From: Amphiscolops sp. MND2022
Taxonomy: Eukaryota
Assembly: GCA_964187785.1 (NCBI GenBank)
Contig: OZ076409.1
Coordinates: 13,518,001 to 13,582,000 of the forward strand
Direction: 5' to 3'
Length of the DNA: 64,000 nt
In this document: one piece after another, positions 17,884 through 37,616 of the stretch
Layout: each line of letters opens with the position of its first letter
Position numbering within the stretch: the stretch's first letter is position 1
Notes under the pieces: model-generated
What the model was told of the DNA's origin: nothing
What the model saw: only the letters and a program-made list of their open reading frames with translations
The model's database searches: none
Program-made: the position numbers and the translations under genes

Positions 17884-19958
17884 TGTAAAGGTTCGATTGG
17901 GTTTAGGAGAAATTAGCCTTCTGAGATTCTTGATCAATAGTGTTTAGGAGTTAGTTTGCGACTATGCCTTCCTAAACCTTTACAAAAGTTGTCTCTAGGT
18001 CTTCCGAGTTCGCAGGAAGGACTTTGTTTCGAGAGAAGAGTTTGGATATATGAAAAGAATTTGAATTAGTTCGAGTATTATATTCAACAATGTTTGTTTT
18101 TACACAATACGCAAGAATACAATACAAACAGAATAATGTAATCATCCAAGTTGACACAAATATCCAATCAATAATATCTGAATTGTTTAGCATTCACCAC
18201 AAATAAATACATCAATTATTTAGGAAGCAATGTTCAGGTAAGTTGTTTAAATACTATAAAAACTGGAATTTTCTGATCTTATTGTCCAACAATTTGGTTA
18301 GGACAAGTGTGCTGACTTTTGGCCAGAATTTCAGTCTATTCAGACCGGTTTGGGGTTCCTAGAGTTCTCAACAATGTAGTGAGAGTTACTAAGTCTATTG
18401 ACAATTTACGTGACAGGTTTGTCACACGTTCTAGCTTATAGGAAGCGAAGAACTAGCTTATAAGAAGCTGAGAGTTAAATAAAATAGTTTTTAGCCTATA
18501 TGACCAGCCAATTACTAGGTCGAAGACAGGATTGTCTTGAGCATAGACTTATAAGAAGTCTTGCGAATCTAAGTAAATTAAGGGTCTTATCTAACCAGCA
18601 TTCGCTAGGTTTTTGTTCGGACAAGATTGCCGATTGGGCTCGATCCAGAGGTTCGGTGCCGTGTTCTAAGAGTTTTAACCTATTGCAATGGACCAGCAAG
18701 TTTGCTAGGTCGAGAGGAAGACAAGTTTGTCTAAAGACTTTGAAGAAGTCTTGTGAGTCTAAGTGAGTTAAAGGCCTTATTTCAACCAGCAGTTTGCTAG
18801 GTTGCTTTTTAGACAAGATTGTCAGAATTCTGTTCAATACTTTATAAGGTTACATGCATTTTACCTTTTAATCAGTTTGTTTTACTTGCAAGTTAGTTGC
18901 AGTTATTGAAATGATCTAGACTAGCAGTCGCTAAGTCTTGACGCAATCGCGTACTAAGAGGAAAGTGATCTCCGTCGAGAATTGTTTGGGAGCGTTTAGC
19001 TCTAGTTAGTTTTCCCTATGATTTTCATAGGAGAACCTTGTCGGTTGTTTGTCTCTTCAGTCACTAGGACTGGGGGTTGTCTATAAAAGACAGGTAGTAA
19101 AAAGGAGCAGAGAAAAGAAAAGAGAAATTTTGAGTTGTGAATTTTGAAGTTATTTTCTAAGTTAAAGAAAATAACTAACCTGAAGTTTGAAGCAAAGATT
19201 GGGTCGGAGAGATTTGTTCTCGCAAGAGAGAGATTTTTTGAGAGAGATGATTTATAGCAGAGGCGAAGAGGAGAGTCAGAGTGAGAGTGTGCGAGAGATT
19301 TATGCGAGAAAATTATGAATCAATTTGCTAGAGTCCGGCTTTTTATACGAGCCGACCGAACGGTACAACCAATCAAATCGATTGGCGTTTTTTATTGGAT
19401 ACGAAATTATTTCGTCATTATCTCGTCAATATTTTGTCCATAATTGGAATCGCATTCACTATTGGATGCAACCGAATAGAAGTCGGCGGGGATTGCATCA
19501 GCTACCGAATATGTTCGGCTAACCGAGTTGGCTGACGCAACTCTTTGTATTTGTCAGGGGAATTAATCCTCTCAAGTGGGGGACTTTGTTCCCACTTGAG
19601 AATTCTTTTGTTTAAAATTGAGAATTTGGCCGTACAAGTGGCGCCTATTATTCTCTTTTCAGAGATATTTACTGGCACAAGTGGCGTCGCATATTGTCTT
19701 TTCAGGGGAGATAAAAGATAATTGTTTGCACAAGTGGCAAGCGTTTTCTTTTGTAGAGGGGAATTCTCCCTTTCATATGACGCGCAGCTGTAATTTTGTT
19801 TATCTCTAAAATTCTTTCAAGCGTGCCTGGAGAATTGAAAGAATTTGAGTAAGAGTTCACAAAAATTGAATAAAAAAAATTCTAGCTCCGATTGAATAAT
19901 TTTCTAAATATGTTTTTTCAAATATTAAAATGAAGAAAAAGTTGTGTTAAACATAACA
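17884..19958 (-). repeat. 3' LTR (2075 bp)
   Basis: Direct repeat of 35108-37182 at a constant offset of 17224; only two substitutions noticed by eye (~18848, ~19117). Confidence 0.97.
17972..18193 (-). CDS. LTR-encoded 73-aa single-TM microprotein (3' LTR copy)
   Basis: ATG-initiated, sense to the element, hydrophobic IIDWIFVSTWMITLFCLYCILAYCV. Confidence 0.35.
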   Translation of the reverse strand: MLNNSDIIDWIFVSTWMITLFCLYCILAYCVKTNIVEYNTRTNSNSFHISKLFSRNKVLPANSEDLETTFVKV

Positions 19959-19981
19959 ACTCACCCGGGGTTTAAGAATGA

Positions 19982-20734
19982 TTAAGTTGAAAGGGGGGCA
20001 TACAGGGTATTTATGACTTTTACTTCGAAAAATATGGAATTGTTTTTTAGCCAGGGGTTCTCTGGGTTCATGAGTTCATCATGTGGGATGAAGCACAAGA
20101 TGGTGATTGCTGTGTTGCTGGCTGTGGGAATAGGTTTCTTGAAGCACTCACTGTTATTGTTATTCGTCACAATGAGCTGTTTGTAGGGTTTGTAAATATT
20201 GCCTTGACCAAGGAGGTGTATCTCGATAACGCCTTGGAAGGGCCAAGTGAGTATCTCATCGTAGGGTCCCGGACACATAGCCAAGCATACTGACATGTAT
20301 TTCCCTTTGGCAGTGTCGATGCCATAAGGGTAAGCTCGTAGATGAAAGGTGTACCCAAAGGGTTGTGAGAAGAAGATAGGGCTACAGACGTCTTTTAGGC
20401 TATTAGGATCACAATAGGGTGCTCTTACATGAGACAAACTTTTTTCGTATTTTTCAGCATTCTGAAAAATATCAGAAAATTGATCAAGCCTCCAAATAAC
20501 TTTGTAGAGGTTCCAATCCCGTGGAATTGATTTCTTTTCGATACGAAGGACTCGCATCTCAAGTGCGTCGAGCTTTTTACTGATCTCGTGTATCATATCA
20601 GAATCAAATGTGTCATCTTTATATTGGGTGATATTGAGTTTTTGTCGAAGCAATAGTAACTCATTGATTAGGGAGTCCGTAAGGGACCTTTCATCTTCCA
20701 ATTGTTCAATAAGGGCAGATGAGCTTGTGTTCAT
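19982..20734 (-). CDS. TRAF-family protein lacking RING/zinc fingers (coiled coil + MATH/TRAF-C domain)
   Basis: Heptad N-terminus, then VIWRLDQFS...SPIFFSQPFGYTFHLRAYPYG...YMSVCLAMCPGPYDEILTWPF...FKKP...FIPHDEL...NNSIFFEVKV, which are hallmark TRAF-C motifs. Confidence 0.92.
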   Translation of the reverse strand: MNTSSSALIEQLEDERSLTDSLINELLLLRQKLNITQYKDDTFDSDMIHEISKKLDALEMRVLRIEKKSIPRDWNLYKVIWRLDQFSDIFQNAEKYEKSLSHVRAPYCDPNSLKDVCSPIFFSQPFGYTFHLRAYPYGIDTAKGKYMSVCLAMCPGPYDEILTWPFQGVIEIHLLGQGNIYKPYKQLIVTNNNNSECFKKPIPTASNTAITILCFIPHDELMNPENPWLKNNSIFFEVKVINTLYAPLST

Positions 20735-20770
20735 CTTGATAGGTCGTTCTGAAATTCAATGGAAAAGACT

Positions 20771-35417: not shown

Positions 35418-36397
35418 TCACCACAAATAAATACATCAATTATTTAGGAAGCAATGTTCAGGTAAGTTGTTTAAATACTATAAAAACTGGAATTTTCTGA
35501 TCTTATTGTCCAACAATTTGGTTAGGACAAGTGTGCTGACTTTTGGCCAGAATTTCAGTCTATTCAGACCGGTTTGGGGTTCCTAGAGTTCTCAACAATG
35601 TAGTGAGAGTTACTAAGTCTATTGACAATTTACGTGACAGGTTTGTCACACGTTCTAGCTTATAGGAAGCGAAGAACTAGCTTATAAGAAGCTGAGAGTT
35701 AAATAAAATAGTTTTTAGCCTATATGACCAGCCAATTACTAGGTCGAAGACAGGATTGTCTTGAGCATAGACTTATAAGAAGTCTTGCGAATCTAAGTAA
35801 ATTAAGGGTCTTATCTAACCAGCATTCGCTAGGTTTTTGTTCGGACAAGATTGCCGATTGGGCTCGATCCAGAGGTTCGGTGCCGTGTTCTAAGAGTTTT
35901 AACCTATTGCAATGGACCAGCAAGTTTGCTAGGTCGAGAGGAAGACAAGTTTGTCTAAAGACTTTGAAGAAGTCTTGTGAGTCTAAGTGAGTTAAAGGCC
36001 TTATTTCAACCAGCAGTTTGCTAGGTTGCTTTTTAGACAAGATTGTCAGAATTCTGTTCAATACTTTATAAAGTTACATGCATTTTACCTTTTAATCAGT
36101 TTGTTTTACTTGCAAGTTAGTTGCAGTTATTGAAATGATCTAGACTAGCAGTCGCTAAGTCTTGACGCAATCGCGTACTAAGAGGAAAGTGATCTCCGTC
36201 GAGAATTGTTTGGGAGCGTTTAGCTCTAGTTAGTTTTCCCTATGATTTTCATAGGAGAACCTTGTCGGTTGTTTGTCTCTTCAGTCACTAGGACTGGGGG
36301 TTGTCTATAAAAGACAGGTAGTAAAAAGGAGCAGAGAAAAAAAAAGAGAAATTTTGAGTTGTGAATTTTGAAGTTATTTTCTAAGTTAAAGAAAATA

Positions 36398-36622
36398 ACT
36401 AACCTGAAGTTTGAAGCAAAGATTGGGTCGGAGAGATTTGTTCTCGCAAGAGAGAGATTTTTTGAGAGAGATGATTTATAGCAGAGGCGAAGAGGAGAGT
36501 CAGAGTGAGAGTGTGCGAGAGATTTATGCGAGAAAATTATGAATCAATTTGCTAGAGTCCGGCTTTTTATACGAGCCGACCGAACGGTACAACCAATCAA
36601 ATCGATTGGCGTTTTTTATTGG
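36398..36622 (-). promoter_or_regulatory. Putative LTR promoter (CCAAT boxes, TATA) and first splice donor
   Basis: CCAAT/ATTGG x3 at 36593-36622, TATAAAAA at 36571-36564, CAG|GTTAGT at 36406-36398. Confidence 0.5.
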
Positions 36623-37616
36623 ATACGAAATTATTTCGTCATTATCTCGTCAATATTTTGTCCATAATTGGAATCGCATTCACTATTGGATGCAACCGAA
36701 TAGAAGTCGGCGGGGATTGCATCAGCTACCGAATATGTTCGGCTAACCGAGTTGGCTGACGCAACTCTTTGTATTTGTCAGGGGAATTAATCCTCTCAAG
36801 TGGGGGACTTTGTTCCCACTTGAGAATTCTTTTGTTTAAAATTGAGAATTTGGCCGTACAAGTGGCGCCTATTATTCTCTTTTCAGAGATATTTACTGGC
36901 ACAAGTGGCGTCGCATATTGTCTTTTCAGGGGAGATAAAAGATAATTGTTTGCACAAGTGGCAAGCGTTTTCTTTTGTAGAGGGGAATTCTCCCTTTCAT
37001 ATGACGCGCAGCTGTAATTTTGTTTATCTCTAAAATTCTTTCAAGCGTGCCTGGAGAATTGAAAGAATTTGAGTAAGAGTTCACAAAAATTGAATAAAAA
37101 AAATTCTAGCTCCGATTGAATAATTTTCTAAATATGTTTTTTCAAATATTAAAATGAAGAAAAAGTTGTGTTAAACATAACACAATTTGCAAAAAGTGGA
37201 ATATGGTGAAAGTTTAAGTTAAATCAAAGTTTTCCTTTCAAAGTGCCAAAACTTTCATTTTTCTTTTTTTTGCATTTTCACAGTGGATTGGCTACTCTTG
37301 AGCCCTAAAATTATGACGCTGCTAGAACTTTTTTTGAGAAATTTATCCCACTGCTCAGAGGGCGTCTTGTTAAATGAAACGCCCGGAAGATGCCAGTTTG
37401 ACCTCGATTATGCAGTTTTGACGTTGAAACGTTTATAATCGCGAAAATATTTTCTTTGAAACGACTTCGTTTTCGTGTTATAAAGTGAAAATGTGTCAGA
37501 AAAAATCCAAGTCAGCCTGCGTTTCATGAAAACTTTTTCAGAGGCACAAAACGTTGTAGAGACGATTGGATGTCACTTGACTTTGGTGATACAAAAAAGT
37601 CTTTTTACTAGTGAAA

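Follow-up and report, generated by a model that had tools for sequence, protein, structure and literature searches.

A 19.3-kb env-carrying Ty3/Gypsy element with a conserved set of accessory genes in the genome of Amphiscolops sp. MND2022

The cis-acting elements of complex retroviruses include the lentiviral Rev/RRE system and the CTE of Mason-Pfizer monkey virus. Among Gypsy elements, the planarian giant Burro (GYPSM1) carries a MATH_TRAF_C domain along with other apoptosis and immunity motifs and a mononegavirus-like env (Grohme 2018; Jurka 2007; reviewed in PMC6431247). Ty3/gypsy elements with a gB-type env, the "ancient errantiviruses" of Chary and Hayashi (PMC13524379), are widespread in metazoans, and mosquito BEL/Pao and Gypsy elements carry a Chuviridae-like glycoprotein (Dezordi 2020, cited in PMC13524379). 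Epsilon-like ERVs of ray-finned fish can carry extra ORFs that encode macro-domain proteins or CNPase (Basta 2009, cited in PMC4977317). The coronavirus Mac1-type macrodomains of positive-strand RNA viruses lie within the replicase polyprotein and are thought to undo antiviral ADP-ribosylation (PMC6521996).

The window analysed here is a stretch of 64,000 nucleotides from Amphiscolops sp. MND2022 (contig OZ076409.1, positions 13,518,001 to 13,582,000). Positions 17884-37182 of the window hold, on the minus strand, a complete Ty3/Gypsy (Metaviridae) element of 19,299 bp (Table 1). The assignment follows from paired TG..CA LTRs with a short TSD, a tRNA primer-binding site beside the 5' LTR, and Pfam matches in pol in the Gypsy-type order PR-RT-RNase H-IN. 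A first-pass annotation, made from the letters of the sequence, had described near-identical 2075-bp LTRs, a CAAT TSD, open gag, pol and env, a macrodomain inside pol and a hairpin array. All of these were recovered, the TSD on both outer flanks, and each named sense ORF on the minus strand proved uninterrupted. The CCHC knuckle of Gag was identified by reading the translation, and the slippery heptamer UUUAAAC is identical in two diverged sister lineages found in the same genome. These are lineage B, with an env 95% identical to that of the present lineage (A), and lineage C, with an env 62% identical. Both share the order gag, pol with macrodomain, ORF71, two to three paralogues, hairpins, env, ORF169 and MATH. 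The element shows the full replication anatomy, and its extra gene set has been maintained by selection across diverged sister lineages. It probably belongs to an env-carrying lineage that transposes now or did so very recently and that has evolved a "complex" genome.

Table 1. Features of the element, by position in the window
Feature	Position	Strand	Remarks
TSD CAAT	17880..17883	.	flanks outer side of 3' LTR
3' LTR, 2075 bp, TG..CA ends	17884..19958	-	2 mismatches vs 5' LTR, at 18848 and 19117
ORF250, RING-less TRAF-like protein (coiled coil + TRAF-C/MATH), 250 aa	19982..20734	-	PF21355 7e-22
ORF169, basic protein, conserved C-terminal region	20771..21280	-	73% identical in B, 42% in C; pN/pS 0.21
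env, predicted class-III (gB/chuvirus-like) fusion glycoprotein, signal peptide and C-terminal membrane helix	21291..23399	-	PF24664 4e-39
Tandem repeat, 76 bp x 2, upstream of env	23513..23665	.	
ORF154, paralogue-family member	23979..24443	-	AUG overlaps ORF71 stop (UAAUG); pN/pS 0.16
ORF71, small conserved ORF immediately upstream of paralogue gene	24443..24658	-	82% identical in B, 43% in C; pN/pS 0.16
Hairpin array, 11 units, 51/61-nt spacing	24681..25296	-	CACGGUA..UGCCGUG then UAAAUAAC
ORF136, second paralogue-family member	25404..25814	-	pN/pS 0.16
Non-coding stretch 3' of pol	27216..27897	-	A vs B 90% conserved, above coding regions
pol frame, 1868 codons stop to stop	28095..33701	-	PR, macrodomain, RT, RNase H, integrase (Pfam; PDB)
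TARG1/OARD1-like macrodomain, pol residues about 317-442	32376..32753	-	between protease and RT
gag, 464 aa, one CCHC knuckle	33671..35065	-	Retrotrans_gag E 4e-4, below Pfam cut-off
Slippery heptamer UUUAAAC	33677..33683	-	5 nt before gag stop; placed for -1 shift into pol
Primer-binding site, 18 nt	35088..35105	-	pairs with 3' end and CCA of an elongator-type tRNA-Met of the genome
5' LTR, 2075 bp, TG..CA ends	35108..37182	-	LTR self-comparison, 0 gaps
TSD CAAT, second copy	37183..37186	.	

The macrodomain was matched weakly by Pfam Macro (E 0.0075, below the cut-off) and much more strongly by five solved human OARD1/TARG1 sequences in a PDB sequence search (E 8e-11). By sequence it groups with the ALC1-like/TARG1 hydrolases, TARG1 belonging to the ALC1-like class, with a catalytic dyad of Lys84 and acidic residue 125 (PMC7050489). 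This dyad lies in the KK and GLD motifs, which align and are conserved in all three lineages (A, B and C), with positions counted on the solved chain and the count off by one at most. The loop before GLD reads E-D-G in lineages A and B; TARG1 and lineage C have G-C-G there, as do P0013 and P0014, two database fragments. The E-D-G form could affect ADP-ribose binding. When the best six database matches were read by eye, four were pol fragments with the macrodomain in the same context between PR and RT, at 31-39% identity. The piece of pol that bears the macrodomain has a pN/pS of 0.12 between lineages A and B, with its bootstrap 95% interval below 0.3.

Members of the TRAF family have an N-terminal RING and TRAF zinc fingers, TRAF1 lacking the RING only. 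The closest solved relatives of ORF250 are TRAF1/5/2/3 (E about 1e-12), and the alignment to TRAF1 begins at residue 57, within the coiled coil. Neither RING nor zf-TRAF gave a Pfam match in ORF250, and the lineage-C form, which has a longer coiled coil, likewise has no RING or zf-TRAF match. Three separated exons of a TRAF-like gene in the same genome align colinearly with the lineage-C ORF (43-52% identity), and the TRAF ORF is an intronless counterpart of this intron-containing gene. A homotrimer model of ORF250 scored 0.63 against 0.38 for the best control, a pass that may reflect the predictor's memory of solved TRAF trimers; 21 of 30 solved same-chain pairs attained that mark, and none of 23 single chains did. 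The homotrimer runs share at least 41% of their contacts, with a partner pLDDT of at least 70. MATH domains are also known in non-immune roles.

Between A and B, pN/pS is 0.042 for env and 0.096 for the MATH gene, ORF250. Eight of the ten solved chains that match the model of the env protein at Z>=5 are class-III fusogens, at a model pLDDT of 50.6, which is low confidence. The best of these is HSV-1 gB, with a middling Z of 7.7 and an rmsd of 9.6 over 208 aligned residues, and the top BFVD matches are glycoproteins of xinmo-, chu- and qin-related viruses (E 2e-19). An F-type env of insect errantiviruses (baculovirus/paramyxovirus F) was rejected, PF24664 being the sole Pfam family at E<=0.01 and the structural matches being class-III fusogens.

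No family or fold could be recognised for the paralogue proteins, ORF71 or ORF169, and ORF169 gave no match in Pfam or Atlas. ORF136 and ORF154 are 29% identical to each other (E 1e-15). Lineages A and B both have the UAAUG junction between ORF71 and the paralogue gene behind it; the stop and the AUG of lineage C are 2 nt apart. Each unit of the array forms one 7+3-bp hairpin, with 11 units in lineage A, 10 in B and five dispersed units in C, and the motif is nearly invariant across all three. Pairing is complete (100% of 130 cells across units), and two pairs show compensatory changes, a covariation that comes from one sub-lineage with two identical units, counted once. The strong conservation of the primary sequence fits an array of DNA-binding sites equally well.

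These parts suggest how the element may work. Gag-Pol would be produced by -1 frameshifting, and the protease would free a TARG1-like macrodomain that could strip ADP-ribose from proteins or nucleic-acid ends and so reverse a PARP-type restriction of replication intermediates by the host. The 3'-terminal ORF would supply the C-terminal half of a host-type TRAF (coiled coil and TRAF-C), lacking RING and zinc fingers, which may trimerise and act as a decoy or dominant-negative adaptor that damps TRAF-dependent signalling, or may divert host proteins that bind MATH domains. ORF71 and the paralogue gene behind it may be translated in a coupled manner through UAAUG. The hairpin array may be an RNA element that acts in cis in export, packaging or regulation, and either the basic ORF169 or the paralogue proteins may bind it. 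The env protein could carry particles from cell to cell, for example from soma to germline. The first-pass annotation's reading of a recently active, possibly infectious invertebrate lineage with a counter-defence toolkit is borne out in part: selected accessory genes have been demonstrated, and immune antagonism, particle formation and infectivity would follow from the scheme above.

It is possible that the accessory genes were instead selected because they help the element to replicate and to be transmitted, through RNA export, assembly, budding, spread from cell to cell or integration targeting. The MATH protein would then recruit host factors, and the macrodomain would handle ADP-ribose marks of ordinary nuclear or DNA-repair steps. 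Purifying selection cannot by itself separate the two roles, for three of the five accessory proteins no homology points to immunity, and a basic ORF near a hairpin array suits an export or packaging pair; furthermore, Cer1 of C. elegans requires its own extra protein, CERV, to export genomic RNA (PMC10309623). However, the two modules with an assignable identity are the C-terminal half of a TRAF, devoid of effector domains, and a macrodomain of the ADP-ribosylhydrolase type, and macrodomains of viruses are known to oppose restriction by PARPs (PMC6521996). Burro, moreover, pairs MATH with BIR and BCL2 motifs (PMC6431247). We regard this alternative as less than probable.

The first-pass annotation counted at least five further sense ORFs and proposed comparing their nonsynonymous and synonymous changes across copies. 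The intactness of lineage-A copies alone is uninformative because these copies are 98-100% identical, and on that ground the extra ORFs might be passengers, or frames that arose by chance within a large spacer without coding function, open merely through youth. Indeed, two candidate frames fail in lineage B: ORF78 (27553-27317), inside the non-coding stretch 3' of pol, has lost its frame, and ORF60 (26163-25981) has stops. Neither is conserved, and both are probably not genes. The other five (ORF136, ORF154, ORF71, ORF169 and the TRAF ORF), however, are open and colinear in both B and C, the latter at 62% env identity. Between A and B their pN/pS is 0.10-0.21, with upper bootstrap 95% limits of at most 0.30 (NG86 was also computed), at a dS of 0.5-1.6, synonymous divergence being near saturation in the 3' genes. 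These dS values also oppose the notion that B and C are recent recombinants carrying the same 3' block. The five ORFs are real genes under purifying selection, and the frames conserved across lineages and the low pN/pS largely refute the passenger reading, which is now very improbable.

The element was also taken at first reading to be young and intact, and a genome-wide search bears this out with at least 33 near-identical copies. MATH has 33 full-length matches at >=98% identity, 32 of them free of stops, env 30 full-length matches at 99-100% (28 free of stops) and pol 24 matches at 98-100% (21 free of stops), and stop-free env and MATH matches adjoin 17 of the 24 pol loci. In 14 copies the two LTRs differ from each other by 0-0.43%, and clean, matching 4-bp TSDs flank 11 of these copies. 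The locus is not a misassembly, because at least 33 near-identical copies exist and most have their own 4-bp TSD. An assembly artefact or nested chimera, in which unrelated elements, two or more in number, had been merged or nested between one LTR pair, might be suspected from the unusual 19.3-kb length, the 2.3-kb stretch 3' of pol that has no conserved ORF and the uneven nucleotide identity of A and B along the element, but it is rejected as next to impossible by the independent copies (at least 15 LTR pairs, with spacings of 17.0-17.8 kb, on nine different contigs, with TSDs that differ between copies), the absence of internal LTRs or a second replication-gene set in the LTR comparison and Pfam search, and the identical gene order in B and C.

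The reading of a recently transposing element with selected accessory genes can be extended, tentatively, to a class of "complex metaviruses". These would be an env-bearing Gypsy lineage, still spreading in the host germline, that has acquired, independently of the vertebrate complex retroviruses, a stable toolkit for counter-defence and regulation. Its components would be a TARG1-type hydrolase within Pol, a dominant-negative TRAF derived from the host, small proteins of one family that match no solved fold, two ORFs coupled by reinitiation, and an RNA element of multiple hairpins that a basic protein of the element itself recognises. We rate such a class as less likely than not.

The first-pass annotation knew of no description of this combination. 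A full-text literature search likewise found no description of the exact gene set, but the claim was too strong as worded, since the parts have precedents in the MATH_TRAF_C of Burro, the macro ORFs of fish ERVs and the widespread Gypsy elements with gB-type env. Burro is alike in joining a Gypsy backbone to MATH_TRAF_C and a mononegavirus-like fusion glycoprotein and in having tandem repeats, and its Dugesia relative has MATH in a separate accessory ORF, as here (PMC6431247). Burro itself, in the account of that review, encodes an ORF1 polyprotein of 4,873 aa in which env lies in frame between gag and pol; it has BIR, BCL2, ankyrin, SMC and SUMO-like motifs, and a dUTPase separates its PR from its RT. 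The present element is 19.3 kb long and ordered gag-pol-...-env, its small ORFs are separate, and what lies between its PR and RT is a macrodomain. BIR, BCL2 and ankyrin gave no Pfam match in it and env is an ORF of its own 3' of pol; a Burro-type giant ORF1 architecture was rejected.

The fish ERVs share a retroelement-borne macrodomain, but they are Retroviridae with a separate macro ORF, in contrast to a domain of a Metaviridae pol between PR and RT. Mac1 is similar as a virus-type macrodomain encoded inside a polyprotein. Macrodomains of positive-strand RNA viruses such as Mac1 are generally of the MacroD type, whereas the present one is closest to TARG1, of the ALC1-like class. To complex retroviruses and to Cer1 with its CERV protein (PMC10309623) there is a likeness of outline, in that accessory ORFs follow pol and surround env and that a structured repeat element and a basic protein are present; it goes with no homology, the present backbone being that of Metaviridae and not Retroviridae. 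The mosquito elements share an env of the predicted chuvirus/class-III type (PF24664; BFVD) but belong to another host group (the present genome, of animal type, has TTAGGG-type repeats, with 182 matches to TTAGGG against five to TTAGG), and the survey that cites them mentions no accessory set for them (PMC13524379). That survey sought three ORFs, and its main text does not contain MATH, TRAF, macro or "accessory". Its ancient errantiviruses resemble the present element in gag-pol-env order, an env that here is predicted to be class III, tRNA primer-binding site and many copies at >98% identity (PMC13524379), and the present element has, as they do, intact gag, pol and env in order in several copies of >98% identity.

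The features that the first-pass annotation had read from this 19,299-bp Ty3/Gypsy element (lineage A below) were all recovered: two near-identical long terminal repeats (LTRs), a CAAT duplication, open sense ORFs, a macrodomain and a hairpin array. The four bases CAAT stand at both outer LTR flanks, all of the listed ORFs are open in the sense orientation of the element (minus strand), and the GC and AT skew of the window is shifted across it. The 5' LTR is followed by two A residues and then by a primer site of 18 bases complementary to a tRNA 3' end including CCA. Without the CCA, this tRNA end was located by pattern search at five places in the same genome; two were examined, and ARAGORN called tRNA-Met (CAU) at both, with the final 15 bases matching. 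We take the T-loop of this tRNA to be of the elongator type.

The gag protein (464 aa) has a weak Retrotrans_gag match and one CCHC knuckle, and the pol frame overlaps the end of gag in the -1 frame. The heptamer UUUAAAC, presumably a classical slippery site, lies in the gag zero frame 5 nt upstream of the gag stop and is identical in two diverged sister lineages from the same genome (B and C) despite differing flanking bases; pol would thus be reached by a -1 frameshift at this heptamer. The Pfam domains of pol follow the Gypsy order of protease, RT, RNase H, integrase zinc finger, integrase core and integrase C-terminal domain. No Rfam family matched window 17000-38000 at E<=0.1, and word-indexed searches for homologues matched only unnamed proteins of ENA or NCBI.

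Features of the window (window coordinates)
Feature	Position	Strand	Remarks
Ty3/Gypsy element, lineage A	17884-37182	minus	
Direct repeat (LTR), 2075 bp	17884-19958	minus	2 differences from the other repeat, zero gaps; TG start, CA end
Direct repeat (LTR), 2075 bp	35108-37182	minus	TG start, CA end
Hairpin array	24681-25296		eleven units
Second, degraded Gypsy-type element	52600-59550	minus	broken frames
Integrase match, degraded element	53747-54739	minus	
RNase H match, degraded element	54740-55594	minus	
Two long overlapping open frames	3108-7596	plus	684 and 912 codons; no Pfam match at E<=0.001
GC-richer block	48000-52000		46-47% vs ~39% GC; several open frames of 180-385 codons without Pfam match

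The GC/AT skew signature of the main element recurs in the degraded one, and the two overlapping plus-strand frames may be part of another mobile element.

Recent activity had been proposed from the single copy, together with a genome-wide search for others, and the proposal held up when the genome (1.07 Gb in 1929 contigs) was searched (every copy count is a lower bound). The telomere-type patterns of this genome speak against TTAGG repeats of the arthropod kind. The LTR matched at least 42 places, at least 40 of them full-length at 97-100% identity, and the LTRs pair into at least 15 elements at a spacing of 17.0-17.8 kb plus three shorter ones. Divergence within 14 LTR pairs is 0-0.43%, and 0.1% would correspond to roughly 50,000-500,000 years if the rate is taken as 1e-9 to 1e-8 per site per year. 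Cleanly matching 4-bp duplications flank 11 of the 14 pairs, and ten distinct sequences occur among them; the remaining three comprise one with a single-base difference, one with four extra LTR-edge bases and one in a complex duplicated context. Most copies are stop-free: at least 32 of 33 full-length matches to the TRAF-like ORF (>=98% identity), 28 of 30 to env (99-100%) and 21 of 24 to pol (98-100%). A copy-by-copy check of pol, env and the TRAF-like ORF found the adjoining env and TRAF-like matches also stop-free at 17 of the 24 pol loci. With so many near-identical copies, the family probably shapes present variation in the host genome.

Individual copies show some irregularities. Copy L004 (G000:C10) carries four additional bases at the outer 3' LTR edge, and the same four adjoin the primer site. 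In copy L030/L029 (G000:C4), an 85-bp partial LTR duplication precedes each of the two LTRs. Two short copies (L015/L010 and L023/L018; G000:C13 and C6) have near-identical LTRs 12.0 and 7.6 kb apart and clean duplications; they may be non-autonomous derivatives, since env and the TRAF-like ORF are kept and most of gag-pol is missing.

The env ORF (702 aa) matches Pfam PF24664, the Monjiviricetes fusion glycoprotein, at 4e-39. Compared by sequence with solved structures, the single sequence matched none and a 3-sequence profile gave only a chance match (E 1.1). A model built from 22 natural homologues has low confidence (pLDDT 50.6), with good folding confined to about residues 60-260. Class-III fusogens make up 8 of the 10 solved chains that match this low-confidence model with Z>=5, led by HSV-1 gB (Z 7.7, rmsd 9.6, 208 aligned) and including HCMV gB, MHV68 gB, Chandipura and rabies G, and Bourbon and Thogoto Gp; baculovirus GP64 comes next in the ranking at Z 4.7. 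The closest predicted viral structures are xinmo-, qin-, chu- and rhabdo-like glycoproteins (E 2e-19 downwards), and then herpesvirus gB. The fold comparison is thus suggestive of an env of gB/chuvirus type. Gypsy elements with an F-type or gB-type env are present in the majority of metazoan phyla, frequently as many near-identical copies, according to the accessible text of PMC13524379.

The macrodomain lies in pol between protease and RT, where residues ~317-442 match five solved human OARD1/TARG1 sequences (E 8e-11) across nearly all of the 150-residue domain; the Pfam Macro model scores under its cut-off on this region. The KK and GLD motifs are retained in the alignment. The accessible text of PMC7050489 gives the catalytic dyad of TARG1 as Lys84 and residue 125, and by a count on the solved chain the two motifs hold these residues, to within one position. 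The three residues preceding GLD are E-D-G in lineages A and B, and G-C-G in TARG1, lineage C and the database fragments P0013 and P0014, a difference with a possible effect on the diphosphate loop.

When 1.84 billion representatives were searched exhaustively without a profile, 392 macrodomain matches reached E<=0.001, 21 of them E<=1e-10. In four of the six top matches inspected (P0013, P0014, P0019 and P0021; 31-39% identical), the flanks align with the element pol on both sides of the macrodomain, and the protease-macrodomain-RT arrangement therefore predates the element family. A Pfam scan covered 27 of the 150 matches listed, and six of these 27 are other retroelement proteins in which the position of the macrodomain varies; RT accompanies it in four, protease in one and gag in one, and one of the six also bears a Tpt1/KptA domain. 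One further match is an RNA-virus polyprotein. In the database protein P0131, a retroelement pol with RT, RNase H and integrase, a Tpt1/KptA RNA 2'-phosphotransferase domain comes after a macrodomain; a possible writer and eraser of nucleic-acid ADP-ribosylation would thereby be combined within a single retroelement protein. Defence against transposon RNA by nucleic-acid ADP-ribosylation is offered as speculation in the accessible text of PMC7050489, and the pol macrodomain ties retroelements to that debate.

The TRAF-like ORF (250 aa, coiled coil plus MATH) ends 24 nt short of the 3' LTR. It matches TRAF/meprin MATH models in Pfam at 7e-22, and solved TRAF1, 5, 2 and 3 at ~1e-12 in an alignment that begins within the coiled coil; Pfam found no RING or zinc-finger match in its 250 aa. 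Its top non-element match in the same genome (42% identity) is a locus with an intron-split MATH domain and an upstream coiled-coil exon. The longer lineage-C ORF is colinear with three separated exons of the intron-containing TRAF-like locus (43, 47 and 52% identity), and the element therefore carries the 3' half of a TRAF-type gene as an intronless copy. Consistent with the earlier description of a captured module, the gene is host-derived, and the simplest reading is that it was captured from a spliced mRNA. We refer to the locus only as an intron-containing TRAF-like gene because its zinc-finger-like exon has no Pfam zf-TRAF match; a full TRAF label was dropped, as RING and zinc-finger exons were not confirmed there by Pfam.

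A three-copy model of the TRAF-like protein scored 0.63 (best control 0.38), with runs agreeing on at least 41% of contacts and a partner pLDDT of at least 70. Among solved same-chain pairs 21 of 30 reached the trimer mark, as against none of 23 single chains; the score would indicate likeness and not binding, because TRAF trimers are already solved. The genome also holds further multi-copy open frames with MATH domains 30-34% identical to that of the element, of 342-349 and 399 codons. The 399-codon frames belong to lineage C, and the shorter ones may represent additional element families with TRAF-like genes.

Since young copies are uninformative on selection, this was judged on the sister lineages, one copy of each. 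Env is 95% identical in lineage B, whose sampled copy has a broken pol, open gag and env, and open counterparts of all five accessory ORFs (ORF136, ORF154, ORF71, ORF169 and the TRAF-like ORF). Stop-free pol is seen in two further copies resembling lineage B (95% identity). In lineage C, env is 62% identical, gene order is conserved and there are three paralogue genes. NG86 values were computed alongside the pN/pS ratios tabulated here.

pN/pS between lineages A and B, with bootstrap 95% intervals
Gene	pN/pS	95% interval	Remarks
gag	0.069	0.041-0.098	
pol, C-terminal piece	0.048	0.036-0.061	
pol, macro-bearing piece	0.118	0.082-0.158	
env	0.042	0.029-0.056	
TRAF-like ORF	0.096	0.066-0.130	
ORF154	0.160	0.090-0.254	
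ORF71	0.156	0.071-0.285	
ORF136	0.164	0.113-0.224	silent sites saturated
ORF169	0.213	0.149-0.299	

Replacement-site change is 2-7 times faster in the accessory genes than in gag, pol and env, and all of the accessory genes are nevertheless clearly under constraint. Open in lineage B, in the same order in lineage C and with A-B ratios of 0.096-0.213, the accessory ORFs are real genes, as had been supposed. ORF78 and ORF60 were rejected as genes by the lineage comparison. Nucleotide identity between A and B is mosaic, at 86% in gag-pol (dS 0.5-0.75), 90% in the post-pol spacer and only 73-79% from ORF136 to the LTR; dS is 1.3-1.7 in env, ORF169 and MATH. Such a mosaic suggests that the lineages have recombined, or that rates differ greatly.

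ORF136 and ORF154 are paralogues (29% identity, E 1e-15), and their family was aligned with seven members: these two, two from lineage B and three from lineage C. The family model has a five-stranded sheet against three helices (pLDDT 77, pTM 0.71), for which no convincing match was found with Foldseek on the PDB (best E 0.037), VIA-align (best Z 4.4) or BFVD (best E 0.008). The Atlas gave no usable match for ORF154 or ORF169. ORF71, 82% identical in B and 43% in C, always lies directly upstream of a paralogue gene; in A and B the ORF71 stop shares bases with the following AUG (UAAUG), and in C the stop and AUG are 2 nt apart, an arrangement in which the pair would be coupled by termination-reinitiation. 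The middle of ORF169 is basic and NLS-like, and its C-terminal 70 residues are conserved (identity 73% in B and 42% in C); ORF169 matches no known family in Pfam or the Atlas. It starts 10 nt after env and is separated from the TRAF-like ORF by 36 nt.

The units of the hairpin array are spaced at 51 or 61 nt, each consisting of CACGGUAACGAUCNNAGUAUCAAUCUCUGCCGUG and then UAAAUAAC. One unit forms a 7-bp plus 3-bp hairpin of -10.2 kcal/mol (z -1.4); the whole lineage-A array has z -2.4 and the lineage-C units z -2.2 to -4.0. Lineage B has 10 units in the same place, and lineage C has 5 dispersed between the paralogue genes and env. Pairing is seen in 130 of 130 cells across 13 distinct units, with compensatory changes in two pairs (C-G to G-C and U-A to C-G), both within one lineage-C subtype; 3 of 500 shuffles reached these pairing and compensation values. 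Because the loop is near-invariant even between lineages in which silent sites of the genes have reached saturation, the array points to a sequence-specific binder of its RNA or DNA form. Both the array and the UAAUG-coupled ORF pair are regulatory devices open to testing.

Three features stand out: the pol macrodomain, the conserved block of five accessory genes and the hairpin array. The element may be infectious, and its accessory genes may serve in counter-defence. If they act in this way, dedicated host-interaction genes would not be confined to vertebrate retroviruses and large DNA viruses but would extend to invertebrate-type retroelements, and the family would allow an endogenous retroelement that counters ADP-ribosylation and TRAF signalling to be studied in a tractable natural setting. 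No Gypsy element with the exact gene set was found described in the full-text literature outside subscription journals and Repbase, but the novelty of the idea was overstated in the first-pass annotation, as it has precedents. The main text of PMC13524379, as accessible, makes no mention of MATH, TRAF, macro or accessory genes. According to the accessible text of PMC6431247, the giant polyprotein of the planarian Burro elements combines a mononegavirus-like env with MATH_TRAF_C, BIR, BCL2-like, ankyrin and further motifs, and a Dugesia relative has MATH in a separate upstream ORF. Some fish epsilon-like ERVs, in the part of PMC4977317 that was available, likewise carry macro-domain or CNPase ORFs.
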